A stretch of DNA of 64,000 nt from an uncultured SAR86 cluster bacterium (GTDB lineage Bacteria; Pseudomonadota; Gammaproteobacteria; Magnimaribacterales; D2472), in the NCBI GenBank assembly GCA_902628925.1, contig CACOPA010000001.1, positions 326,532 to 390,531 on the forward strand, given 5' to 3'. The notes under the pieces were generated by a model, which saw nothing but the letters and a program-made list of their open reading frames with translations, was not told where the DNA came from and did no database searches. This document shows, piece by piece, positions 4,398-47,856 of the stretch (position 1 is its first letter; every line of letters begins with the position of its first letter). The translations under genes were made by a program, and so were the position numbers.

Positions 4398-5591
4398 ATG
4401 AAAACAGCTGTAATAGTTGATAGCGTTAGAACAGGCCTTGCAAAATCGCATAGAGGTGGTTTTAACATTACAAGAGCTGATGACATGCTTGCACATATCA
4501 TCAACAACCTAATGGAAAGAAATTCAAATTTGCCAGGTGAGGCGGTTGAAGATGTCATCATGGGGTGCGGTAATCCAGAAGGACCAATGGGTCATAATAT
4601 AGGAAGAAATGCTGCTGTGCTTTCAAACCTCCCCGTTACTGTTGGAGGTACAACTGTAAATAGATATTGTTCTTCAGGACTTCAAACTGTTTCCATGGCT
4701 GCAAGTCAAGTAATGGCTGGATGTTATGATACTGTTATTGCTGGTGGAGTAGAGCAAATTTCTATGTTGCAAGGAAAGCAAAACATGGAAGGCTTTGTTA
4801 ATGAAAAACTTGCTGAGCAAAGTCCTGGTATTTATCACCCAATGGGTATAACTGCAGAAACCGTTGCTAAAAGATATGATGTATCAAGAGAATCTCAAGA
4901 TGAATATGCTTTGGAGAGCCAAAAGAGAACTGCGAATGCTCAAGAGCTAGGTTTATATGATGATGAGATTGTTCCAATGAAAACCAAGATGCTACTTGTT
5001 AACAAAGAAACTGGTGATTCAAAAGAAGTCGACTATACAGTTGATAAAGATGAATGTAACAGACCAGATACAACATTGGAGGGCCTTTCTTCTCTAAAGC
5101 CTGTCTTTGATCCAGAAAATGGATCAGTTACTGCTGGAAATTCCTCTCAGCTGTCTGACGGTGCTTCAGTGACCTTGGTTATGAGTGAAGAAAAAGCACT
5201 CGAACTTGGCTTAAAGCCTTTAGCTTATTTTAGAGGTTTCACTACTATGGGTTGTGAGCCAGATGAAATGGGTATTGGACCAGTTTTTTCAGTACCAAAA
5301 TTACTAAAAAACTATGATTTAAACGTTGATGATATCGACTTATGGGAATTAAATGAGGCTTTTGCGGTGCAGGTTGTTTATTGCAGAGATAAGCTAGGTA
5401 TCTCCATGGATAAGCTCAATGTAAATGGGGGCTCAATTTCAATTGGTCATCCATTTGGTATGACAGGCTCGCGACAGGTTGGCCATATGGTTAGAGAACT
5501 TAATCGTCAAGATAAGCAATTTGGTGTTGTAACCATGTGTGTAGGTGGTGGCATGGGTGCCAGTGGCCTATTCGAAAGATACCCAAGTTAA
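4398..5591 (+). CDS. Acetyl-CoA C-acyltransferase / 3-ketoacyl-CoA thiolase
   Basis: Thiolase signatures are present: NRYCSSGLQ (active-site Cys), NEAFA, GGSISIGHPFGMTG and CVGGGMG. Strong RBS. Confidence 0.9.
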   Translation: MKTAVIVDSVRTGLAKSHRGGFNITRADDMLAHIINNLMERNSNLPGEAVEDVIMGCGNPEGPMGHNIGRNAAVLSNLPVTVGGTTVNRYCSSGLQTVSMAASQVMAGCYDTVIAGGVEQISMLQGKQNMEGFVNEKLAEQSPGIYHPMGITAETVAKRYDVSRESQDEYALESQKRTANAQELGLYDDEIVPMKTKMLLVNKETGDSKEVDYTVDKDECNRPDTTLEGLSSLKPVFDPENGSVTAGNSSQLSDGASVTLVMSEEKALELGLKPLAYFRGFTTMGCEPDEMGIGPVFSVPKLLKNYDLNVDDIDLWELNEAFAVQVVYCRDKLGISMDKLNVNGGSISIGHPFGMTGSRQVGHMVRELNRQDKQFGVVTMCVGGGMGASGLFERYPS

Positions 5592-5593
5592 AA

Positions 5594-6505
5594 ATCATTT
5601 CTGAATTCAAGATTATTGAGAAGTACCTATCTAATATAGGTACTTCTTATAATAATAAGAATAAGATCTTGAAAGGTGTTGGAGACGATGCCGCGGTAAT
5701 TTCACTATCAGATAATCTTATTGTTTCAACTGATACCTCCGTAGAGGGTGTCCATTTTCCAAAGGCTATTAAACCAGAGTATGCAGCCTATAGAGCATGT
5801 GTTACAGCACTAAGTGATCTGGCAGCAATGGGCTCTCATCCATTAGCCTTTCAGCTTTCTCTTTCCACTAGAGAGAATAGCCCAAAATTTTTTTCCTCAT
5901 TTAAAAAAGGACTTCAAGATTTTTCAAATGATTACAAAATTGGCTTAAGTGGTGGTGATCTTGTGAAAGGACAATACCAGATATCTGTGACTGTCTTTGG
6001 TAAACAGCATTCAAAAGTTTTGCTAAGAAATAACGCTAATGTTGGTGACATTGTTTGTTTATCCGGTCAATTAGGCAATGGTTTATTTGGTATGCAGAAC
6101 TTCAAAAAGCGTAATAGAGAAAATAAGATTTCATCTGCTTATCTTAAACCTAAAGCTCTAATTGATTATGGCAAAATCATTGCAGGATTTGCCTCGAGTG
6201 CGATTGATATTTCTGATGGATTTCTTCAAGACCTTGAACATCTAAGCAAAGCATCTAATATAGGATTCGAATTATCTTCAAGCTTAATACCCTACAATTT
6301 AAATTTATCATTAAACCAATGCTTAAATTGCGGTGATGATTATCAATTAATTTTTACTGTGCCTAAAAAAAATATTCAGTCTCTTGCCATAAAAATGAAA
6401 AAAATGAAGTTTGAAATGTATCAAGTTGGCACATCAATTAAAACGAAGAAAATATATCTTGATGGTAAAATAACTTCATTAAATAAAGGCTATAAGCATT
6501 TCTAA
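5594..6505 (+). CDS. thiL: Thiamine-monophosphate kinase
   Basis: Contains GVGDDAAVI, TDTSVEGVHF, ALSDLAAMG, GGD and DISDG. The homologous N-terminus begins near SEFKIIEKYL. The start is uncertain: the only canonical in-frame start is GTG 5537, inside the thiolase gene. ATC 5594 and ATT 5597 are positioned as expected. See finding. Confidence 0.8.
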   Translation: MISEFKIIEKYLSNIGTSYNNKNKILKGVGDDAAVISLSDNLIVSTDTSVEGVHFPKAIKPEYAAYRACVTALSDLAAMGSHPLAFQLSLSTRENSPKFFSSFKKGLQDFSNDYKIGLSGGDLVKGQYQISVTVFGKQHSKVLLRNNANVGDIVCLSGQLGNGLFGMQNFKKRNRENKISSAYLKPKALIDYGKIIAGFASSAIDISDGFLQDLEHLSKASNIGFELSSSLIPYNLNLSLNQCLNCGDDYQLIFTVPKKNIQSLAIKMKKMKFEMYQVGTSIKTKKIYLDGKITSLNKGYKHF

Positions 6506-13104: not shown

Positions 13105-13982
13105 AGACTAGCTAGATTTGTAACAGCTACGGTTTGGCCATTTTCAACAAATCCCTGTCCTTGAACTATAAGATTTGAAAATTGAGGTATTCCACTTACC
13201 CAAAGCCCGTCGGCTGTATCCTTAATAATTTTTATTGAATGAAACTCAACTTTGCTTTCAGAATTAACAGTCCTTACACCAATATTGCCTTCATCGGTTA
13301 GCAATAAAACGGAAGCAGTAATTTTATGGGCTAAAATCGGTTGAGTACTAATATGCATTGTGCCAGTAATACCATCTCTTACAGCGCCAGTGACATTCTC
13401 AAACTCTGCTTCAACTCTGAAGGTTCTAGTAGCGGGAGATGCGCTTTTAGATACGAATGTGAGATTAGATGAAATAGTTTCATCAGTGATTAAATCAATT
13501 TTGACCTGAAGACCTTCAAAGATGTCTTTGATTTTAGCTTCAGGAACCTCAGCAACGAATGTTATAGGGCTTAGCTCAATTATGGTTGCGCAGATTTCAC
13601 CTCTTTGAATAAAGTTACCTGGCTTAACAATATTTTCTACATAGCCATCGAATGGAGCTTTTACTTCTGTTCGATTCAGTTCGACTATGCCGAGTCTACA
13701 CAAAAGCTCATCTTTTTTAACCCATTCACCTTGTCGAACACCTGTTGCAACGACTTCACCTGAAGTTTTTGCCTTAACCGCAACTCTTTTTTCACTGATA
13801 GCAACAGAATTTACGCTTATGGTCGGAGAAATCATTTCCGCAATACTTTCATTAATTACAACTGAGGATAATGTTTTCTGAGCTTTTGGCGGTTCTATTT
13901 TGTCCTCTTCAAGCACGCCAGTTGCAAACCAGAAAGATACTGGTAGCAAAATTAGTAAAGCCATCCTGACGTTTTTAGACAT
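13101..13982 (-). CDS. RND efflux periplasmic adaptor (membrane fusion protein)
   Basis: Signal/anchor plus lipoyl-like hairpin motifs (GEVV...V.QG.WVKKDELLCRL, V.APFDGYV). ATGA overlap with the permease gene. No outer-membrane factor gene is adjacent. Confidence 0.8.
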   Translation of the reverse strand: MSKNVRMALLILLPVSFWFATGVLEEDKIEPPKAQKTLSSVVINESIAEMISPTISVNSVAISEKRVAVKAKTSGEVVATGVRQGEWVKKDELLCRLGIVELNRTEVKAPFDGYVENIVKPGNFIQRGEICATIIELSPITFVAEVPEAKIKDIFEGLQVKIDLITDETISSNLTFVSKSASPATRTFRVEAEFENVTGAVRDGITGTMHISTQPILAHKITASVLLLTDEGNIGVRTVNSESKVEFHSIKIIKDTADGLWVSGIPQFSNLIVQGQGFVENGQTVAVTNLASL

Positions 13983-14083
13983 AATTTTTATATTTTAAGA
14001 CCTACAAACATATATAGGTCCAAATCTCCTGTTTAAAAGGGTGAGTATTATAGTGTAATCAGCCCAAATTGTATGTTTTTGCC

Positions 14084-14692
14084 TCAAAGATCATATTTTT
14101 TTCTGAGTTGTTTGAATAAATTGGAATCAAACTTTTTTAATTCAAATTCTTCAGTCTCAGTATAATCAATTGATAAATCCACGCCTTCTTCAAGTTTGAT
14201 TAGTAATTCTGCATAATTTTTTCTAAATTGGTTGATTGCATTGTATTGATTGGAGTCATTCAGAGTACTCCATCCAGTTTTGCATCCAGCGAAATAAACT
14301 ATCGGATGTGACCAATTATATTTTTTTCTTGGAGAATAAGATTTTTGAGCTTCCAAAAATGCTTCATCAGCACTCGGAATGCTATCTGAGTATGGCTGCT
14401 TTCTTACTGCTTTTACAAATTCGTTTAGAGTGGGAATGAACTCATTGTTGCTGATAATAAAAGCACTAGCTTGGTTTAGCTGATGAATTGAAAAGTTTTT
14501 TAATGTACTGGCCCAGAGTCGTTTCGCAGTAATTATTTTTTCATTGGATGAATAAATTTTAAAGAACTGATAATGATAGGCCACTTCAAACTTATAAAAT
14601 AAGTCCTCAATAAATTGAATTATGAGTTTCTTTTTAGAGCTCGAGATCTTTTGACCACGATAGGTCTTTTGTCTGCTCTGAAGATTCCCCAT
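14084..14692 (-). CDS. Phage lambda replication protein P-like protein (putative DnaB helicase loader)
   Basis: AKRLWASTLKNFSIHQLNQASAFIISNNEFIPTLNEFVKAVRKQ aligns by eye to lambda P RRQWVLAFRENGITTMEQVNAGMRVARRQNRPFLPSPGQFVAWCRE. The later YNWSHPIVYF aligns to YPWKSNAHYW. I prefer the start at M14 (14692), which has AGAAGG upstream; the ORF-track start is 14731. Confidence 0.6.
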   Translation of the reverse strand: MGNLQSRQKTYRGQKISSSKKKLIIQFIEDLFYKFEVAYHYQFFKIYSSNEKIITAKRLWASTLKNFSIHQLNQASAFIISNNEFIPTLNEFVKAVRKQPYSDSIPSADEAFLEAQKSYSPRKKYNWSHPIVYFAGCKTGWSTLNDSNQYNAINQFRKNYAELLIKLEEGVDLSIDYTETEEFELKKFDSNLFKQLRKKYDL

Positions 14693-15425
14693 GGCCTTCT
14701 TCTTTGTTATTAGATCTTTTATTTTCTTCATTATTAATTGTATTAACTATTTCTTTTCTTTTTACAAAGTCTACAAACTTTGAATTCCATGATTTTAGAG
14801 CTACTCCATCTTCTTCCCAAAACAGTACAAATTCTAATATATATGATTGTGAAACATTTTTTGGGATATTAGCTAACTCAAGAACCTCATAGGCGTCACT
14901 GCTTGGTTGCCAATTTCGATGCATTTGGGTTGGAGCGCCCTTATTTGGTGATTTTTCCTTTACCCATTCTCTTCTTACAAAATCAACAAAGATTGAGTTC
15001 CAATTATCTTTAAGCAAGCCTTTTTCACCCCAATAAATTTTAAATTCTTGAAGCTTGTTAGCACTAAATTCTTTTGATATACCACCCATTAATAATACTT
15101 CGTAAACTTCTAGATTAGGTTGCCAGTTAGTATGCATCTGCTTTTTTAACCCATCTGGAGACTTCCCAGGAAGCTTCAATTTATAAACATTGTCTTTTTT
15201 CCCAGTTGCAGAATCGCTAGATCCAATAAGTTTTAGTTTCAAAAGCTTTTGAGTTGCTTGGATGAGATTTTCCCTATTTTCAAATTTTAGATAATTCTCT
15301 AAATTAGAGATCAGTTCATCGAAGTTTTCAGAGGAAATTTTATTTTGCTGAATTACAGCCAAAACTATTGCTGAAGTAGGGCCAAGAGTATTAATTATAT
15401 CGAGTGAAACTGAAACTTCCTTCAA
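14634..15425 (-). CDS. Protein with tandemly duplicated DnaT-like (primosomal protein I C-terminal) domains
   Basis: Two repeats, QMHTNWQPNLEVYEVLL...LQEFKIYWGEKG...NWNSIFVDFVRREW and QMHRNWQPSSDAYEVLE...ILEFVLFWEEDG...SWNSKFVDFVKRKE. They resemble E. coli DnaT [17 protein letters not shown]...[28 protein letters not shown]. The ATG abuts the aroG stop. Confidence 0.6.
   Translation of the reverse strand: MKEVSVSLDIINTLGPTSAIVLAVIQQNKISSENFDELISNLENYLKFENRENLIQATQKLLKLKLIGSSDSATGKKDNVYKLKLPGKSPDGLKKQMHTNWQPNLEVYEVLLMGGISKEFSANKLQEFKIYWGEKGLLKDNWNSIFVDFVRREWVKEKSPNKGAPTQMHRNWQPSSDAYEVLELANIPKNVSQSYILEFVLFWEEDGVALKSWNSKFVDFVKRKEIVNTINNEENKRSNNKEEGHGESSEQTKDLSWSKDLEL
14754..15140 (-). repeat. 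Intragenic tandem duplication (two units of about 60 aa) within the DnaT-like gene
   Basis: Unit 1 spans aa 96-155 (nt 14961-15140) and unit 2 spans aa 167-224 (nt 14754-14927). They share the pattern QMH.NWQP....YEVL, .EF...W.E.G, .WNS.FVDFV.R. Confidence 0.8.
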
Positions 15426-16475
15426 TTAGTTTCCTCTTCTTTTTTCAACAGCTTCATAGCAAGCATTTAAACATATCAACGTATCTTCTGTATTCATGCA
15501 TGCGTCAGTAATACTTTGACCATATGTAAGATTTTCTGAAATTGACTGATTACCTTCAACTAAATTGCTCTCTAGCATGAGGCCTCTGATAAGCAAGTTA
15601 CCATCAGAAATTTGATCAGCAATTTTTTGTGTAACGGTGACTTGATTTTTATGTTGCTTCTGACTATTTCCATGGCTCGCATCGATCATGATTGATTCAT
15701 TAACCTCCGCCTCTCTTAATGCTATCAAGGTTTGCTCTACTGCCTCATTGTCATAATTAGGATTGCTGCCACCTCTTAAAATAATGTGAGCATCTGAATT
15801 GCCTGAAGTCTTGTAAATGGAGACCATACCTTCTTTTGTATTAGAGAAGAATACATGTGAGTGGTTAGCTGCTTGGATTCCATCAATTGCTGGCTTGAGT
15901 GCACCAGAAGTTCCATTTTTAATACCAATAGGACAAGACAAACCAGATGCTAGCTCTCTATGTATCTGACTTTCTGCAGTTCGCGCACCAATGGCGCCCC
16001 AAGATATTAGATCAGCAACGTATTGTGGTGAAATGGGATCTAGGAATTCTGTACCTATAGGAAGCCCAATTTCAGAAATTTCTTTAAGAATTGATCTAGC
16101 TAACATCAAGCCTTTATTGGCATCAAAAGTATTATTCAGATCTGGGTCGTTAATGAGACCTTTCCAACCAACTGTAGTCCTAGGTTTTTCAAAATATACT
16201 CTCATTACTATTAAAAGATTATCTGAGAATTGATCTCTAGCATCTTTTAAAAATTTAGCGTATTCAATGGCTGATTTTTTATCATGAACTGAACATGGCC
16301 CACATATCACAAGCAACCTATCATCTTTGCCATGGAGAACCTGACTTATTTCATTTCTAGTTCCATATACAAGCGCTGCAACCTCATCTGTAAGTGGATA
16401 TTTCTCTAAAACTTCATTAGGAGTTATTAGATCAAACTTCTCTACAATTCTTGTATTGTCAGTAAGATAATTCAT
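15426..16475 (-). CDS. aroG: 3-deoxy-7-phosphoheptulonate (DAHP) synthase, class I; feedback isozyme type not determinable
   Basis: 349 aa. Contains LLVICGPCSVHD, KPRTTVGWKGLINDP, GARTAESQ.HRELASG and IMIDASHGNS. Confidence 0.9.
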   Translation of the reverse strand: MNYLTDNTRIVEKFDLITPNEVLEKYPLTDEVAALVYGTRNEISQVLHGKDDRLLVICGPCSVHDKKSAIEYAKFLKDARDQFSDNLLIVMRVYFEKPRTTVGWKGLINDPDLNNTFDANKGLMLARSILKEISEIGLPIGTEFLDPISPQYVADLISWGAIGARTAESQIHRELASGLSCPIGIKNGTSGALKPAIDGIQAANHSHVFFSNTKEGMVSIYKTSGNSDAHIILRGGSNPNYDNEAVEQTLIALREAEVNESIMIDASHGNSQKQHKNQVTVTQKIADQISDGNLLIRGLMLESNLVEGNQSISENLTYGQSITDACMNTEDTLICLNACYEAVEKRRGN

Positions 16476-16643
16476 TTGCAGTATGATAATTGATAAAAAA
16501 CTATAAAAAATATATTAATCAAAAATATATATGTTTTTACCGTAAATTAACTGATTTAGTTAAATCTTTTGTATAAGCCTCAAAATGCTTTAAAAACACT
16601 ATATATTGTGTATTATTCACTCAATGATTACACTATCTAGTAG

Positions 16644-17438
16644 ATGAGCTCTACAATTCAAAGAGAATTTCCGCTGCTTAAGGGTAAAAATATTGATGCT
16701 CTCCCAGAGGATTTATTTATTCCTCCAAATGCCCTTGAATTAATCCTAGAGGAGTTCTCAGGTCCAATGGATCTTCTTTTATATCTAATTAATAAAAAAG
16801 ATATTGATATACTGGAGTTAGATCTAGCTTCAATCACAGAACAATATCTCCAATATATAGAAATTATGGAAGAATTGAAGGTTGAGCTTGCATCAGATTA
16901 TATGGTCATGGCGGCAACTCTAGCGCATGTTAAATCTAGAATGTTGCTTCCTCAAGATAATGAGCTTGAAGATGAAGAAGATCCAAGATCAACTCTGATA
17001 AGAAGATTACAAGAATACAAACGCTTTAAATCTGTCTCGGAAAGAATCTCAAACCTTCCCAAAATTGAACGGGACTATTTTGTTGCCAACGCTGGCTTGC
17101 CAAAGTTTAATGAGCCCAAGGAGCAACTCCCTTTCAATACAACCGATCTTCGGGATGTGTTTGCTGAAGTAATTTCAAGACCTAAATTTGAAGGAATCCA
17201 CTTTGTTGAATTTGAGGAATTATCAACGCAAGAAAGGATTGAGCACATTCTTGGCCTTTTAACCAAAAGAAATATCATTCAATTCTTTAAGACCTTTAAA
17301 AAATCTGAGGGGAGACAAGGTGTTGCAGTTGCTTTATTGGCATCACTAGAGCTTGTTAAGGATGGCAATATAGAAATCATTCAGAATGAGGACTCAAATC
17401 AGTTGTATCTTAAATCAGTCAGTCAGGGAGTCCATTAA
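16644..17438 (+). CDS. scpA: Segregation and condensation protein A
   Basis: Contains F.GPMDLLLYLINKKDIDILELDLASIT.QYL and a C-terminal winged helix. Followed by scpB with a one-base overlap. Confidence 0.85.
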   Translation: MSSTIQREFPLLKGKNIDALPEDLFIPPNALELILEEFSGPMDLLLYLINKKDIDILELDLASITEQYLQYIEIMEELKVELASDYMVMAATLAHVKSRMLLPQDNELEDEEDPRSTLIRRLQEYKRFKSVSERISNLPKIERDYFVANAGLPKFNEPKEQLPFNTTDLRDVFAEVISRPKFEGIHFVEFEELSTQERIEHILGLLTKRNIIQFFKTFKKSEGRQGVAVALLASLELVKDGNIEIIQNEDSNQLYLKSVSQGVH

Positions 17439-18004
17439 TGGAATTAAATGCAAATCATGTTGAAGCTATCTTGTTTGGCGCAGCTCGACCAGTAAAACTT
17501 TCAGAAATTAAATCTCTTTTATCAAATCAAGGCATCAAAGTTGAATTATCGGAAATTAAGGAAGTCCTTAATGACTTGGAATTAAGATATCAAGAAACTT
17601 CACTTTCAATATTGGAAGTTGCTAGTGGATACCGTCTTCAAATTAAATCTGAGTTTTCTGAATTAATTTATCCAATGTGGAGTGATACCCAAGCTAGAAC
17701 ATCTAAAGCCTTAATGGAAACCATTTCAATAATTGCCTACAGGCAACCAGTTACAAGAGGCGATATTGAGGATATTCGAGGCGTTAGTGTTAGCTCTCAA
17801 ATTATAAGAACACTTCTTGATAAAAATTGGATCCAAGCTGCAGGATATAGAGATGTTCCAGGAAGACCAACTCTTTACAAAACTACAACTAATTTTTTAG
17901 ATGATTTACAAGTTAAATCAATATCTGATCTTCCGCCATTACCCGAGATAGAAGATGCTTCCATTGACCTCGTTGACGATGATTTCAATCTTCAAACTGG
18001 ATAA
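17438..18004 (+). CDS. scpB: Segregation and condensation protein B
   Basis: Contains VEAILFGAARPV, ETISIIAYRQPVTRGDIEDIRGV and GRPTLYKTT. Confidence 0.85.
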   Translation: MELNANHVEAILFGAARPVKLSEIKSLLSNQGIKVELSEIKEVLNDLELRYQETSLSILEVASGYRLQIKSEFSELIYPMWSDTQARTSKALMETISIIAYRQPVTRGDIEDIRGVSVSSQIIRTLLDKNWIQAAGYRDVPGRPTLYKTTTNFLDDLQVKSISDLPPLPEIEDASIDLVDDDFNLQTG

Positions 18005-18012
18005 TGCATTGA

Positions 18013-18729
18013 ATGCAAAGACTACAAAAGTTTCTAGCGAGCGCTGGGTTTGGATCTAGGCGCAAATCTGAAGAAATCATAAAACGAGGAAGAGTCCGAC
18101 TCAATGATGCTCAAGCAAAGCTAGGAGATAAAGTTGGTGAATTAGACAAAGTATATGTTGATGGAAATTTAATAGAATCTATTGCTCAACCCACTAGAAT
18201 TATAATGCTTAATAAACAACGTGGTGTGATATGTTCTAAGAACCCACAAAAATTTGGCGCAACAATATTTGATAATTTACCTGATCCATCGACTAATTGG
18301 ATTTCAATCGGCAGACTTGATGTCAACACAACTGGCCTCTTATTAATAACAAATAATGGTGAGCTAGCACATAAACTCATGCATCCATCTTCGATAATTG
18401 ATAGAGAATATCTTGTCAGAGCAAGAGGGAACTTTAGTGAGAAAATCAAAGAATCCATGCTGAAAGGTATAAATATTGATGATAAAAAATTGCAGTTGAC
18501 AGATATTGTCCTGGGGGTGAAGCAATCATCCAATCAATGGTTTACTGTCTGTTTACAGTCAGGGAAAAATAGAGAAGTAAGAAATCTTTTTGATTATCAT
18601 GGCTTACAAGTCAGCAGACTAAAACGTGTTAGATTTGGTTCGATATTTTTAGATAAGGACTTAAAAGAAGGACAATTAAAAGAACTTACCTCAAATGAAG
18701 TCGACCAAATCATTGAAAATGGAATATAA
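18013..18729 (+). CDS. rluB: 23S rRNA pseudouridine synthase (RsuA/RluB family)
   Basis: Has an S4 domain (RLQKFLASAGFGSRRKSEEII..GRV) and the catalytic motif GRLDVNTTGLLL. Shows scpAB-rluB synteny. Confidence 0.85.
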   Translation: MQRLQKFLASAGFGSRRKSEEIIKRGRVRLNDAQAKLGDKVGELDKVYVDGNLIESIAQPTRIIMLNKQRGVICSKNPQKFGATIFDNLPDPSTNWISIGRLDVNTTGLLLITNNGELAHKLMHPSSIIDREYLVRARGNFSEKIKESMLKGINIDDKKLQLTDIVLGVKQSSNQWFTVCLQSGKNREVRNLFDYHGLQVSRLKRVRFGSIFLDKDLKEGQLKELTSNEVDQIIENGI

Positions 18730-19300
18730 GAAGATTCATTTGGATTTATTAAAAATTTCTAAAAAAAATAACCACTCTAGTTTTTTAAATTTTTTAAAAA
18801 TCAGCCCTCCAAAACAGCTCAAAGTATTTAATGGAGAATTGTCAGTCTATTTATCAAAGGCAATTGTAGGACAACAACTTTCTACAAAAGCTGCAAAAAC
18901 TATATGGGAGCGAGCTGAGAAATTTATCATTAATCTACCATTACAAAATAGGAACTTAGAGAATGACCTTAGGGATAGCGGACTCTCTCAAAAAAAATGT
19001 GAATATGTAAAAAATATTTTAATTTCTAATAAATTACAAAAGAAGAAAAATTATTACAAAACCATTGGAGCAGAGGGATTCACTAATTTATTAATTTCTT
19101 ATAAGGGGATAGGGCCTTGGACAGTAGATATGGCAAAAATGTTTTTCCTAGGTGATGTCGATATATTGCCCAAAGGAGATTTAGGCATAAAAAGGGCATG
19201 CAATAATTTTTTTCCTAATGAGACCTTAGAAAGTATCGAGGAGATTTATAAACCCTTTAATTCCTACCTGAGTTTGAACCTATGGGATAGTCTTGATTAA
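18719..19300 (+). CDS. DNA-3-methyladenine glycosylase II-like (HhH-GPD, AlkA family)
   Basis: Contains GQQLSTKAAKTIWER, YKGIGPWTVDMAKMFFLGDVDILPKGDLGIKRA. The start is taken at MEYKK (18719); the ORF-track start is 18695. Confidence 0.7.
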   Translation: MEYKKIHLDLLKISKKNNHSSFLNFLKISPPKQLKVFNGELSVYLSKAIVGQQLSTKAAKTIWERAEKFIINLPLQNRNLENDLRDSGLSQKKCEYVKNILISNKLQKKKNYYKTIGAEGFTNLLISYKGIGPWTVDMAKMFFLGDVDILPKGDLGIKRACNNFFPNETLESIEEIYKPFNSYLSLNLWDSLD

Positions 19301-20023
19301 TTCTGAATATCTAAAGTAATGTTCAGTTGCGGCATCACTATCCTTTGAGAAAAACCAGTCATAACAAGGCATTAGATCATCTAGTGATTTAAGGTCATTT
19401 GGGTCTTCGCCAGGATATGCAGTTGACCTCATATCCGTTGGAGATGCACCCGGATCAAAATTAAATATCTTTAGATCATGAATATTTTCGAGTTCATCTC
19501 GAAATATTTCAGCCAGTCCCTTCACAGCAAACTTGCTTACCGAATATGCTCCCCAAAAAGCCTTACCATAATCAGCCACACCAGAAGACGTAAAAATAAT
19601 TCTAGCTTTTTGAGAGTTAGTTAAAATTGGTAGCATGGTCTTTGCTAGCATAAACTGTGAAGTGAGGTTTACATTCATTACCTTGTTCCAAGTTTCTAAA
19701 TCATAATCACTCAAGGCACTCATCTTGCCTAAAATTGCTGCATTTAGAACAAGGCCGTAAAGTTCATCATAGTTTTCGTCAATATTTAATTTAATTTCAT
19801 TGTAATGAGATGCATCTAAGTTGCTTAAATCACAGCAAATAATAAGATGCTTACCTTTCGGGTTAATTGACACCAATCCATCATAGGTCTTGTTAAGACT
19901 CTCCTCATTGCTTGCTAGTAAAACTATGTTAGCTCCTTGAGAAGCAAAATGCGTTGCTAGCTTATTGCCTATCCCTCTAGTGGCACCAGTGATCAGAATA
20001 TTTTTATTTTCAAGCGTGTTCAT
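19280..20023 (-). CDS. Short-chain dehydrogenase/reductase (YciK-like)
   Basis: Contains TGATRGIG and YSVSK. It is the third gene of a ubiG-HAD-SDR trio, as in Pseudomonas. Confidence 0.7.
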   Translation of the reverse strand: MNTLENKNILITGATRGIGNKLATHFASQGANIVLLASNEESLNKTYDGLVSINPKGKHLIICCDLSNLDASHYNEIKLNIDENYDELYGLVLNAAILGKMSALSDYDLETWNKVMNVNLTSQFMLAKTMLPILTNSQKARIIFTSSGVADYGKAFWGAYSVSKFAVKGLAEIFRDELENIHDLKIFNFDPGASPTDMRSTAYPGEDPNDLKSLDDLMPCYDWFFSKDSDAATEHYFRYSELIKTIP

Positions 20024-20675
20024 CTAGCAACTTAAAATTAGTTTTTGAAAACTCTAATAAATTTCTAACTTCAATATCATCATTGTCAAGGTCAGATGAT
20101 TTTAATGCATACCCATAAGTGCATGCTGCGGTAAGAGTTCCTGCTGCTCTAGAAGCCATTAAATCCTTTTGGTGATCTCCAAAATAAATCACTTCTTTCG
20201 GATTAAGGTTAAGCTGATTGCATGCTAACAATATTCCTTCAGGACTAGGTTTAGCTTTTTTTAGATGATCTGGACAAACCAAGGTCATACAGGATGATAG
20301 ATCAGGGGTTTCTTCAATAATTTTAGAGGCATATACATATGGTTTGTTAGTTACGATTCCCCATTTCAAATTATTGAGTTTAGTTTTTTCAATCAATTCC
20401 GAAGCACCAATAAATAAATTTGAAAACTTGCCAAGGTTATTTTTATAAGTATCAAGAAATTCTTTTTTTAATTTTTCGAATTCAGGATGATCCTCCTCAA
20501 TTTTAAATCCAAGCTTGACTAACATTGCGCTTCCATCAGAAACATAAGATCTTATTAAATCTGCATCTGTTGGAGGCTTTTGATATTTTTCTAAAAGAGA
20601 ATTTAAGCAATAAACAAAGTCTGGAGCAGAATCAAGTAAGGTGCCATCCAAATCAAAGAGCAATCCTTTAATCAA
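20010..20675 (-). CDS. HAD-family phosphatase (phosphoglycolate phosphatase / MupP-like)
   Basis: Contains LLFDLDGTLLDS, VTNK and GD...D. Overlaps both neighbouring genes. Confidence 0.7.
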   Translation of the reverse strand: MIKGLLFDLDGTLLDSAPDFVYCLNSLLEKYQKPPTDADLIRSYVSDGSAMLVKLGFKIEEDHPEFEKLKKEFLDTYKNNLGKFSNLFIGASELIEKTKLNNLKWGIVTNKPYVYASKIIEETPDLSSCMTLVCPDHLKKAKPSPEGILLACNQLNLNPKEVIYFGDHQKDLMASRAAGTLTAACTYGYALKSSDLDNDDIEVRNLLEFSKTNFKLLDEHA

Positions 20676-21369
20676 CTTTTACACCATGCATCATATAGTT
20701 AACACCTAAATCATTATTTAGTGTTGCACTATGAAAGAGGGGGTTATAAAAAAGACCCTTGCTTTCCATAAGCCTTACATTTGCTGAAGTCATATATGAC
20801 TCTAGTTCATAAGGTTTTATAAATTTTGCATATTCATGAGTGCCTTTAGGCAACAATTGAAAGAGGTATTCGGCTCCAAAAATTGCTGTTACAAAAGATC
20901 GTGGATTTTTATTGATTGTTGAAAGGAACAAGGACCCATGTCTTTTGAGCATAGAGGAGCATTCGTTTATTAAAACTGATGGGTCAGGTACGTGCTCCAA
21001 AACCTCAAGACAGGTCACAATATCAAAGTAGTTTTTATGATTATTTGAAAAACTCTTCGCATCTGTGAGATGGTATGAAATATTTTTTTTGTGAGCATTA
21101 GCATGATGTTTTGCTACTTCAATATTTCTTTCTGTTACATCTATTGCTGAAACCTCAGCTCCCGCATCAAATAATGCTTCAGCAAGAAGACCGCCACCAC
21201 ATCCAACATCCAAAACTTTTTTGCCCTTAAGATCAATTTTATTGGAGATATATTCTGCTCTGATTGGATTAATCACATGCAAGGGTTTGAAATCACCAGT
21301 GGGATCCCACCATTGTTCTGCAATGGCTGCAAATTTTTGAACTTCATTTTGGTCGATATTATCAGTCAT
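20668..21369 (-). CDS. ubiG: Bifunctional ubiquinone biosynthesis O-methyltransferase
   Basis: Contains EVQKFAAIAEQWWDPTGDFKPLH.INP.R, the SAM motif VLDVGCGGGLLAE, and EVLEHVPDP. Confidence 0.9.
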   Translation of the reverse strand: MTDNIDQNEVQKFAAIAEQWWDPTGDFKPLHVINPIRAEYISNKIDLKGKKVLDVGCGGGLLAEALFDAGAEVSAIDVTERNIEVAKHHANAHKKNISYHLTDAKSFSNNHKNYFDIVTCLEVLEHVPDPSVLINECSSMLKRHGSLFLSTINKNPRSFVTAIFGAEYLFQLLPKGTHEYAKFIKPYELESYMTSANVRLMESKGLFYNPLFHSATLNNDLGVNYMMHGVKVD

Positions 21370-21619
21370 AGCTTATTCATTATTAGTGAACAGGATTGTA
21401 AGTATTTTTGTTATAAAAATGTAATTTCGAAAAAAGTTTTTATATATAGTATTTAGGAATTATTGTTGTTTTATCAATAAATTTATATAAAATTCACCAT
21501 CTATGTCGCAAATCCTTGTAAAACTAACATCCTAGTTTGATTATTTCTATTATTAATTTTAATTTTATTCTTTAGATTCTGTTGGAGATAGTACTATAGC
21601 TTCGCAAAAGAAAAACTTC

Positions 21620-22123
21620 ATGCCTATCAATGAAAAGATTAGGGCTGATGAAGTTATGTTAATTGATGATAGCGGTGAAAAACTTGGGATCGTCATGATT
21701 GAAGAAGCGCTCGATAAAGCAAAAGCAAAAAACATTGATCTTGTTCAAGTATCACCTTATGGTGCAAATCCAACTGTATGCAAATTATTAGATTACGGTA
21801 AATTCCAATTTGAAAAGAAGAAAAATCAAGGGGGCGCAAAAAAACAGAGAAAACAGTCCTTAAAAGAGATTAAATTCAGGCCCTCTACAGATGTTGGTGA
21901 TTACAACATTAAATTAAAAAAGATAAAAAACTTTATTATTGACGGAGATAAGACTAAAATTAGCGTCCGATTTAGGGGGCGTGAGATTTTAAACTCTAAT
22001 CTAGGTCTTGAGCTGCTTAATCGAATTAAAGATGACTTAAGTGATGTTGCTCAAGTTGACCAAGAGCCTTCATTGGAAGGTAGACAACTGTTGATGGTGC
22101 TTTCTAAAGTCAAAAAGAAATAA
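21620..22123 (+). CDS. infC: Translation initiation factor IF-3
   Basis: Contains [25 protein letters not shown]...P.VCKL.DYGKF, KEIKFRP..D.GDY, RFRGRE and EGRQLLMVL. The true start is possibly ATA at 21596. See finding. Confidence 0.9.
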
Positions 22124-22130
22124 AATTATT

Positions 22131-22325
22131 ATGGGTTATAAGTTAAAAACACACTCTAGTGCTAAAAAGAGATTTAAAAAGACAGGTTCTGGCTTAAAGC
22201 GAAGAAGTGCCAACAGATCTCATATTTTAACCAAGCAAACCACCAAGAGAAAAAGACACAATAGAGGGCTTATTAAGATGCAAGATGAAACTAAAAAAAT
22301 AGCATCTAAACTTTTAGTCAAATAA
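22131..22325 (+). CDS. rpmI: 50S ribosomal protein L35
   Basis: A 64-aa basic protein with [20 protein letters not shown]. Shows infC-rpmI-rplT order. Confidence 0.9.
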
Positions 22326-22334
22326 GAGATAATC

Positions 22335-22682
22335 ATGCCAAGAACAACTAAAGCTGTAACAGCAAAAGCCAAACATAAAAAAGTTCTTTCCTCTACAAAA
22401 GGCCACTATGGTGCGAGAAGTAGGCTATATAAAACTGCAAAACAGTCAAATATTAAATCGCTTCAATACGCTTTTAGAGATAGAAAGAACAAGAAGAGAA
22501 CCTTTAGATCTTTGTGGATTGCTAGAATATCAGCTGCACTAAATGATCATGAGATCTCATATAGCAGGTTTATAAACAACCTTTCAAAGTCTGATATAAA
22601 GCTTGATAGAAGAATTCTATCTGGAATCGCTTATTCTGACCCAAAAACATTTTCAAAGATTGTAGATAAAGTAAGGCTATAA
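22335..22682 (+). CDS. rplT: 50S ribosomal protein L20
   Basis: Contains KGHYGARSRLYKTAKQ, AFRDRKNKKR.FR.LWIARI.AA. Confidence 0.95.
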   Translation: MPRTTKAVTAKAKHKKVLSSTKGHYGARSRLYKTAKQSNIKSLQYAFRDRKNKKRTFRSLWIARISAALNDHEISYSRFINNLSKSDIKLDRRILSGIAYSDPKTFSKIVDKVRL

Positions 22683-47656: not shown

Positions 47657-47730
47657 GGCTGGATGGCAGAGTGGTTATGCAGCGGCCTGCAAAGCCGTGT
47701 ACGCCGGTTCGATTCCGGCTTCAGCCTCCA
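47657..47730 (+). tRNA. tRNA-Cys (GCA), CCA encoded
   Basis: GGCTGGA...TTCAGCC acceptor stem, anticodon arm GCGGC-CTGCAAA-GCCGT, T-arm GGTTCGATTCC. 74 nt, closely parallel to E. coli tRNA-Cys. Confidence 0.93.
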
Positions 47731-47769: not shown

Positions 47770-47856
47770 GCCCAGGTGGTGGAATTGGTAGACACAAGGG
47801 ATTTAAAATCCCTCGAAGGCAACTTCGTGCCGGTTCAAGTCCGGCTCTGGGCACCA
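47770..47856 (+). tRNA. tRNA-Leu (UAA), long variable arm, CCA encoded
   Basis: GCCCAGG...TCTGGGC acceptor stem, anticodon arm AGGGA-TTTAAAA-TCCCT, variable arm CGAAGGCAACTTCG, T-arm GGTTCAAGTCC. 87 nt. Confidence 0.93.

Follow-up and report, generated by a model that had tools for sequence, protein, structure and literature searches.

SAR86 versions of dopC and dopE: a putative DnaB-loading gene pair directly downstream of aroG

How the helicase DnaB is loaded onto DNA in the marine SAR86 bacteria is the question raised by a short chromosomal locus of an uncultured SAR86 cluster bacterium (GCA_902628925.1, contig CACOPA010000001.1). In the stretch that was analysed, 64,000 nucleotides (nt) from position 326,532 to 390,531 of the contig (the window), aroG is followed by two overlapping genes, the first encoding DnaT-type domains and the second a relative of the phage lambda replication protein P. 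An initial annotation, made from the letters alone, had proposed that the two genes form a helicase-loading or replication-restart module, and had pointed in this connection to the dopC and dopE genes of Brezellec and colleagues. We have found that the aroG-linked pair is very probably the SAR86 version of dopC/dopE, and we favour, with moderate confidence and on comparisons of sequence, the view that it encodes the organism's main DnaB loader.

In the 2017 paper by Brezellec et al. (PMC5509034), dopE was described as a domesticated lambda P gene and dopC as its upstream companion. The DopC protein was said to have a lambda-O-like N-terminus, whose helix-turn-helix (HTH) was recognised as HTH_36 by HHpred, and a DnaT C-terminal motif that replaces the C-terminus of O; figure 3 of the same paper includes E. 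coli proteins with DnaT_C and IstB-like domains. It was also reported there that the DopE-carrying Cellvibrionales and Oceanospirillales have neither dciA nor dnaC/I. The suggested connection with this system was borne out by full-length homology to the proteins of Cellvibrio japonicus. DopC of the window shares 35% identity with C. japonicus DopC over 170 residues spanning both repeats (E 2e-32), and DopE shares 29% identity with C. japonicus DopE over its full length, in 230 aligned columns (E 6e-35). The latter protein (P0484; CJA_3124, on the 4.58-Mb chromosome CP000934) is annotated as 'replication protein P [Cellvibrio japonicus]' and scores 43.4 bits against the Pfam family PF06992. It was reached by a search with the P-like open reading frame (ORF) that lies downstream of, and overlaps, the gene for P0251, a DopC relative that shares its cluster with a Porticoccaceae protein.

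An exhaustive profile search with SAR86 DopC gave 632 relatives, many of them 350-420 amino acids (aa) long with three DnaT domains. C. japonicus DopC, at 394 aa, likewise has three Pfam DnaT domains, and among 149 representatives of the DopC family the domain occurs once in 11, twice in 48, three times in 81 and four times in 6. The suggestion that a duplicated DnaT-like partner would be a distinct architecture was thus not upheld, and the SAR86 pair is a new lineage-level occurrence of the system published in 2017 rather than a new architecture.

The genes aroG, dopC and dopE lie head to tail, all on the minus strand, with the following features:

15426..16475, minus strand: aroG, class I 3-deoxy-D-arabino-heptulosonate 7-phosphate (DAHP) synthase, first gene of the unit (Pfam DAHP_synth_1, E 2.4e-92)
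15432..15436, minus strand: Shine-Dalgarno-like GAGGA in the last aroG codons, 7-11 nt before the dopC start
15423..15428, minus strand: stop-start junction TAA-TTG, the aroG stop followed by the dopC start codon
14634..15425, minus strand: dopC homologue, 263 aa (Pfam DnaT twice, E 2.3e-37)
15228..15425, minus strand: DopC N-terminal domain, residues 1-66, four predicted helices (AlphaFold2 (AF2), hhalign)
14946..15140, minus strand: DnaT-type domain copy 1, residues 96-160 (Pfam PF17948, AF2, Foldseek)
14742..14927, minus strand: DnaT-type domain copy 2, residues 167-228 (second Pfam stretch, self-alignment, AF2)
14637..14669, minus strand: DopC C-terminal tail motif KDLSWSKDLEL, inside the dopE overlap (conservation)
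14634..14692, minus strand: out-of-frame overlap of dopC and dopE, 59 nt (98 nt with the upstream ATG)
14084..14692 (202 aa) or 14084..14731 (215 aa), minus strand: dopE homologue, lambda-P-family putative DnaB loader
14087..14134, minus strand: DopE C-terminal helix KFDSNLFKQLRKKYDL (conservation, end-to-end alignment, low-confidence AF2)

No terminator was found between the genes of this unit, and the GC content of dopC/dopE (0.344) is that of the surroundings. The dopC-type ORF does sit flush behind aroG, as first described, the aroG stop TAA at 15426-15428 being followed without a gap by the dopC start codon at 15423-15425; that codon had been given as ATG, but it reads TTG, and the conserved DopC N-terminus contains no ATG. 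The reported overlap of 59-98 nt was recovered in both of its forms, 59 nt if dopE opens at the ATG at 14692 and 98 nt if it opens at the ATG at 14731. The former appears the likelier start, since it is preceded by a Shine-Dalgarno-like GAAGG motif and is where P0121 begins, a cluster representative that is 97% identical to the window DopE and stands for 708 sequences. Relatives of the locus were collected by a scan of one genome per species with SAR86-specific peptide patterns, which for this reason covers SAR86 only; it gave 42 loci, 40 of them labelled SAR86, Gammaproteobacteria, Proteobacteria or Pseudomonadota. In each of the 42 SAR86 loci with both genes, these are neighbours and overlap, and overlaps of the same type, 89 nt each, are found in C. 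japonicus, in the L043 pair and in a Porticoccaceae locus (L051). The intergenic regions that bracket aroG-dopC-dopE hold the two arms of a perfect 12-nt inverted repeat, ATAGTGTAATCA / TGATTACACTAT, at 14050-14061 and 16625-16636. A rough estimate puts the chance expectation for 2.8 kb of AT-rich sequence at a few tenths of one such pair; the repeat is probably accidental, but might be a shared regulatory element, promoter or operator.

The start of dopC directly abuts the aroG stop in each of the 39 SAR86 sequences that could be compared (38 loci and the window), as TAA-TTG in 29 of them, TAG-TTG in 3 and TAG-GTG in 7, and is in no case an ATG. All 39 carry a Shine-Dalgarno-like GAGG/AGGA motif within aroG, situated 7-13 nt before the dopC start in the TTG-start loci and 17-19 nt before it in the 7 GTG-start loci. 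To judge from the sequences, this zero-gap junction implies translational coupling, a detail that is absent from the accessible portions of the 2017 description of dopC/dopE and is new with respect to them. The aroG context of the pair is specific to SAR86, the Cellvibrionales relatives having radA upstream instead. In the mechanism that we propose, dopC would be translated by reinitiation at the weak TTG directly past the aroG stop and dopE translation would start inside the 3' end of dopC; because of these two arrangements, the aroG transcript might yield both DopC and DopE at ratios that are low and fixed. In one long-read SAR86 assembly (L031, JBJLIA010000032, 4941-5699) the aroG frame ends about 280 nt early, with the dopC TTG at its usual place; the early end may reflect a frameshift, a fault of the assembly or a real disruption of aroG.

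The DnaT-like module of about 60 aa that the initial annotation had recognised was confirmed by Pfam, which places the DnaT DNA-binding domain twice in DopC (127 bits, cut-off 25), and the tandem duplication is also evident from a 62-residue gapless self-alignment that scores 161, against 27 +/- 5 for shuffled sequence. DopC also has matches to three PHROG families named 'replication initiation protein', in each case to the C-terminal part. In the AF2 model, with a mean predicted local distance difference test score (pLDDT) of 69, the N-terminal part is predicted to form helices at residues 8-14, 16-27, 35-45 and 51-63, residues 69-87 a disordered linker, and residues 105-158 and 176-237 two three-helix bundles, followed by a disordered tail. 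The top Foldseek matches of these bundles were 4OU6, a complex of DnaT84-153 with single-stranded DNA (ssDNA), and 6AEQ, the ssDNA-binding domain of Salmonella DnaT (prob 0.95-1.0; template modelling (TM) score 0.58-0.65 on target). DopC was also considered as a DnaT orthologue, and this was rejected: it scores 20 bits against the NCBIfam equivalog NF002770, for which the cut-off is 201, and its alignment covers only positions 65-134 of the 179 in the model. DopC is, by these comparisons, a protein that shares the DnaT domain but is not a DnaT orthologue.

Outside the DnaT domains, the N-terminus of DopC aligns with the N-termini of the three-domain DopC proteins (hhalign prob 97.3%, E 1.8e-11). 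It has a weak Foldseek similarity to Fur-family winged-helix domains, and no Pfam HTH match was found at E <= 1. An hhalign comparison of the DopC profile with the single sequence of phage Ab31 O gave no match, comparisons of this kind being uninformative. At the other end, after a low-complexity disordered linker, DopC proteins carry a family-wide C-terminal motif with the consensus TD(R/T)SWA(D/E). Of 129 family tails, 91 have it in the form D-x-S-[WLFIM]; 57 SAR86 sequences all have D254 and W257, and in the window the TD(R/T)SWA motif takes the form KDLSWSKDLEL. The motif is not mentioned in the portions of the 2017 paper that were accessible, which makes it a new detail relative to them, and it is a candidate partner-binding peptide. 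Among the DopC relatives, a protein of 638 aa (P0344), named 'plasmid replication initiation protein' by the Joint Genome Institute (JGI), has Rep3_N and Rep3_C followed by two C-terminal DnaT domains. This Rep_3 plasmid protein and the phage initiators that carry one DnaT domain show the DnaT module to be an accessory that can be carried from one replication initiator to another.

The likeness of the second protein to lambda P, which had been noted over about 120 aa, held at the level of the family: DopE scores 37.1 bits against Phage_lambda_P (PF06992; gathering cut-off 26), along profile positions 3-159 of 162, and matches PHROG_109, 'P-like helicase loader', at E 1.9e-16. The direct match to lambda P itself is weak, with 22% identity over 59 aa by blastp and a marginal hhalign E of 0.006. 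In the C-terminal helix of DopE, the residues L205, F206, L209, R210, K211 and K212 do not vary within SAR86. The helix can be aligned over its entire length with the C-termini of lambda P and C. japonicus DopE, and appears from this alignment to be the positional counterpart of the C-terminal lasso in domain IV of lambda P. It was predicted by AF2 as well, at low confidence; the DopE model as a whole, built on a 41-sequence alignment, has a pLDDT of 42, which is unusable, and was excluded from the fold search. In lambda P, the lasso seems to engage before any other element, after which the opened spiral is stabilised by domains II and III (PMC12661323).

SAR86 DopE and Cellvibrionales DopE are sisters in a neighbour-joining tree, with the P proteins of phage Ab31 and lambda outside; the tree is small, and although it fits one shared domestication, its phage sampling is too thin to establish this. 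Like the published pairs of Cellvibrionales and Oceanospirillales, the SAR86 pair has the two-gene order with an out-of-frame overlap, the same DopC N-terminal domain (the hhalign match at 97% given above), tandem DnaT domains and S-W tail motif, a DopE that is a member of PF06992 and can be aligned from one end to the other, and a chromosomal, non-phage context free of iterons. It differs from them in its host, a lineage outside the 2017 paper as far as the accessible portions of the latter extend, and in its compact DopC, of 263 aa with two DnaT domains where C. japonicus DopC has 394 aa and three. The context differs too, being aroG-dopCE followed by genes for a membrane fusion protein (MFP) and a resistance-nodulation-division (RND) pump rather than radA-dopCE or the C. 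japonicus context, as does the coupling of dopC to aroG by TAA-TTG, and some SAR86 relatives have a mini-DopE or no dopE at the position. In Haliea sp. GCA_016703175.1 (Halieaceae; locus L052, 1331-6545), dopC-dopE lies between radA and rpsF-rpsR-rplI-dnaB, convergent with dnaB.

If DopCE is the main DnaB loader, it could work in the following way. DopC would no longer be an origin-specific initiator; its two DnaT-type three-helix bundles would bind exposed ssDNA, and two or three DnaT copies per chain would amount to a ready-made array holding the unwound strand. In E. coli, such an array of DnaT domains is assembled on ssDNA from separate DnaT subunits. DopE might be expected to open and deliver DnaB as lambda P does, because it aligns to the P profile and because its conserved C-terminal helix aligns with that of lambda P, and its globular part would help to open the DnaB ring. 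The N-terminal domain of DopC, the TDxSWA-like tail or both would tether the DopE-DnaB complex to ssDNA. DnaB would in this way be delivered to ssDNA at oriC, and probably also at restarted forks, DopCE taking the place of DciA or DnaC. A link to DnaB is seen in Haliea, in which dopCE adjoins dnaB.

Several points weigh against giving DopCE this role. What could be read with respect to dciA, dnaC and dnaI in SAR86 is confined to the 64-kb window and flanks of at most 6 kb in relatives; none of the 23 window proteins scanned is DciA or DnaC, and in a literature search on helicase loaders in SAR86, DciA and DnaC included, none of the 15 papers listed of 249 mentions SAR86. The lambda-P-like fold and the lasso of DopE are inferred from sequence alignment only; a PDB sequence-profile search with DopE did not recover lambda P, its sole match being a weak one to SPP1 G39P (E 0.01), and the same search with DopC did not recover E. 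coli DnaT. The lambda-O-like HTH reported for DopC was confirmed neither by Pfam nor by hhalign in the SAR86 N-terminus. The roles given here to the aroG coupling and to the DopC tail motif are conjecture. Finally, as the initial annotation had supposed of their biochemistry, no experimental characterisation of any DopC or DopE was found in the literature, in which later papers only cite the 2017 proposal.

The alternative that survives best, though we consider it unlikely, is that the pair acts in replication restart only, as a DnaT-like primosome adaptor and a loader at stalled forks, with another loader (a divergent DciA, or none) serving oriC. E. coli DnaT, the only characterised protein with the domain, acts in PriA-dependent restart, and the DnaT domains of DopC are strong matches; the part of E. 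coli DnaT that lies N-terminal to its domain is, however, unmatched in DopC, as the short and low-scoring alignment to the DnaT equivalog given above makes plain. The Cellvibrionales pair adjoins radA, a recombination and repair gene, and a restart role for DopC was raised by Brezellec et al. 2017 (PMC5509034). On the other hand, the DopE-carrying Cellvibrionales and Oceanospirillales have neither dciA nor dnaC/I according to that paper, so that initiation in them would be left with no other loader that is known. Furthermore, roles in restart and in initiation are not mutually exclusive.

The proposal that DopCE is a resident replication module also depends on its standing in the chromosome. 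The initial annotation had judged the pair domesticated rather than prophage-borne, and this agrees with what was found. In every SAR86 locus with enough flank, rluB, scpB and scpA lie on one strand and aroG-dopC-dopE, the MFP gene and an AcrB-type pump gene on the opposite one; the order around the aroG pair, the conservation of which had been put forward as a check, is identical in 42 SAR86 species loci and is also held in L049, L054 and L057. The locus closest to the window, at 97% identity, is that of the single-cell assembly AG-917-F05. Across the loci AroG is 69-100% identical in the 38 species loci that include aroG, and the lowest identities are 40% for DopC and 38% for DopE. Between close relatives the ratio of nonsynonymous to synonymous substitution rates (dN/dS) is 0.12-0.35 for dopC, 0.10-0.24 for dopE and 0.04-0.09 for aroG. 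All 21 neighbouring window proteins examined are housekeeping proteins; the neighbours include dxs, ispA, an AcrB-type RND gene, an MFP gene, scpA, scpB, rluB, a glycosylase gene, pheST, pntAB and gyrA, and no phage gene, integrase or att-like repeat was seen among them, in line with what had been noted earlier. Two scans of 2.9 million viral contigs gave no relatives of the pair, and the best match of DopE among 50,697 phage records was a Pseudomonas phage P protein of 25-27% identity. The pair is a vertically inherited chromosomal one under purifying selection and not a prophage fragment. Two loci of the scan carry other labels, Methanobacteriota archaeon (L029, PCAW01000055) and Mesoflavibacter profundi (L040, CAXQNQ010000204). 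Both have the SAR86-type gene order, from rluB to the RND gene in the former and from dopC to the RND gene in the latter, with neighbours at 59-78% protein identity, and by their sequences they are most likely contaminant contigs in the bins concerned.

These observations bear on a second alternative, in which the pair is a decaying or selfish prophage remnant, or an anti-phage decoy that titrates DnaB, with no role in host replication. Both proteins do have phage relatives, an anti-phage side benefit was suggested by Brezellec et al. 2017 (PMC5509034), and the dN/dS of the pair exceeds that of the neighbouring housekeeping genes (0.10-0.35 against 0.00-0.09). We nevertheless hold this alternative to be very unlikely: SAR86 lineages with no more than about 40% protein identity to one another have the same gene order and undisrupted frames, the dopCE locus has been retained in streamlined SAR86 genomes of 1 Mb, no PADLOC defence model was matched, and phage genes, integrases, att-like repeats and viral relatives were absent as described above.

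A functional phage lambda P-type module was also considered for the pair and rejected on its chromosomal context, the absence of iterons and an upstream gene without Phage_rep_O. Neither iterons nor repeat arrays were found in 13900-16700, DnaA boxes in the window are at chance frequency (19 observed, 20 expected), and there are no DnaA-box matches in 13872-22660. A GC-skew minimum near 16-18 kb was tried as an origin and set aside, the skew tracking gene strand throughout the window and the DnaA boxes being at chance. That DopC is an origin-binding initiator of the lambda O or plasmid Rep type that fires a secondary origin near its gene, at which DopE loads DnaB, can hardly be credited: the relatives of DopC do include phage replication initiators with a DnaT domain and the Rep_3 initiator P0344 fused to two of them, and the lambda origin does lie inside gene O, but the lack of iterons and repeat arrays, the chance frequency of DnaA boxes and the skew of the window, which follows gene orientation only, all speak against it, and in 13 genomes the skew minimum was placed at gidA-dnaA and not at dopC (PMC5509034).

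Elsewhere in the window, between 40000 and 64000, a long series of genes on one strand has a GC content of about 0.30-0.32, down from about 0.34-0.38; within it lie genes for tRNA-Cys (47657-47730) and tRNA-Leu (47770-47856).

The proposed DopCE loader resembles several known systems in part. Like lambda O/P and the Ab31-like Pseudomonas phage pairs, it consists of an initiator-like gene followed by a gene for a P-family loader of about 200-230 aa, and like lambda P, DopE has a conserved C-terminal helix at the lasso position. DopE is, however, only 22-27% identical to phage P proteins, DopC has DnaT domains in place of the Phage_rep_O domain and the C-terminus of O, and there are no origin iterons in dopC and no prophage context. 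As in the dnaT-dnaC operon of E. coli, a DnaT-type ssDNA-binding bundle is encoded directly upstream of a helicase-loader gene. DopE is of the P type and has no ATPase domain, whereas E. coli DnaC is an AAA+ protein; DopC has two DnaT domains per chain where E. coli DnaT has one per subunit, and the region that precedes them in DopC bears no relation to the N-terminal part of DnaT. The loader gene of the E. coli operon is itself regarded as phage-derived by Brezellec et al. (PMC5109545, PMC5509034). In Vibrionaceae, VdhL1 and VdhL2 are virus-derived, non-homologous replacements of dciA that are remotely P-like and whose genes were transferred together with a weakly lambda-O-like companion gene (PMC11087808). 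DopCE is similar to them in pairing a virus-derived, P-like putative loader with a companion. In contrast, the VdhL proteins fail PF06992, which the window DopE passes, they are sporadic and horizontally spread where SAR86 dopCE is vertically fixed, and DnaT is absent from the text of PMC11087808.

Within SAR86 the locus occurs in several forms. The number of DnaT repeats varies from two to three; L049 (GCA_028406185.1, 5001-5912) encodes an aroG-abutting DopC of 303 aa with three DnaT domains. A subclade (L034-L041) has a DopC of 254 aa with a GTG start and a DopE of only 140 aa (for example L035, 6677-7099), from which about 60 residues with the invariant WSHP motif are gone and in which the N-terminal part and the C-terminal helix are kept. 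In L054 (CP097968.1, SAR86, 1.0 Mb; 5001-5810) and L057 (5001-6089) there is no dopE between dopC and the MFP gene. The DopC proteins of these two loci and of L053, in each of which the MFP gene comes next, end in a DopE-type C-terminal motif (...NLRDKYKI, ...QLKEKHKI). This motif, L-[RK]-x-[KQERS]-[HYFL]-x-[ILVF], ends 118 of 119 SAR86 DopE proteins, and it ends 5 of the 149 DopC representatives, against 0.022 expected by shuffling. In one such protein, P0450, the tail can be aligned from end to end with residues 130-194 of DopE, and the match takes in the WNFLN and F-x-IP motifs (z ~3.5). A hidden Markov model (HMM) of the C-terminal 45 residues of DopE scored the putatively fused tails at 5-10 bits, similar to shuffled controls. 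The enrichment of the motif, the end-anchored pairwise alignment and the missing dopE at the position are together suggestive, at the level of sequence, of a one-gene locus in which DopC is fused to the tail of DopE.

Tentatively, and with more doubt than belief, we propose that SAR86 holds a natural reduction series of DopCE at one fixed locus, running from DopC with DopE, as in the window, through DopC with the 140-aa DopE, to the single gene of CP097968.1 and L057. The working core of the loader would be an ssDNA-binding array of DnaT domains tethered to a single DnaB-binding lasso helix, its supply hard-wired to the translation of AroG. The array and the helix would have to be tethered to each other, in a complex or covalently, and the one-gene forms would fit this. 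If the reduction series is read correctly, it follows that DopC and not DopE is the main body of the loader.

DopCE is a proposed third bacterial solution to helicase loading, after DciA and DnaC/DnaI, and its fixation throughout SAR86, which are among the most abundant bacteria of the surface ocean, widens its known range and suggests that dopCE was domesticated before SAR86 and Cellvibrionales split. The SAR86 variants, with two or three DnaT domains, a truncated DopE or the one-gene form, are in effect ready-made deletion mutants that offer short and simple constructs for in vitro loading assays, and they point to the array of DnaT domains and the C-terminal helix as the parts that are likely to be indispensable.

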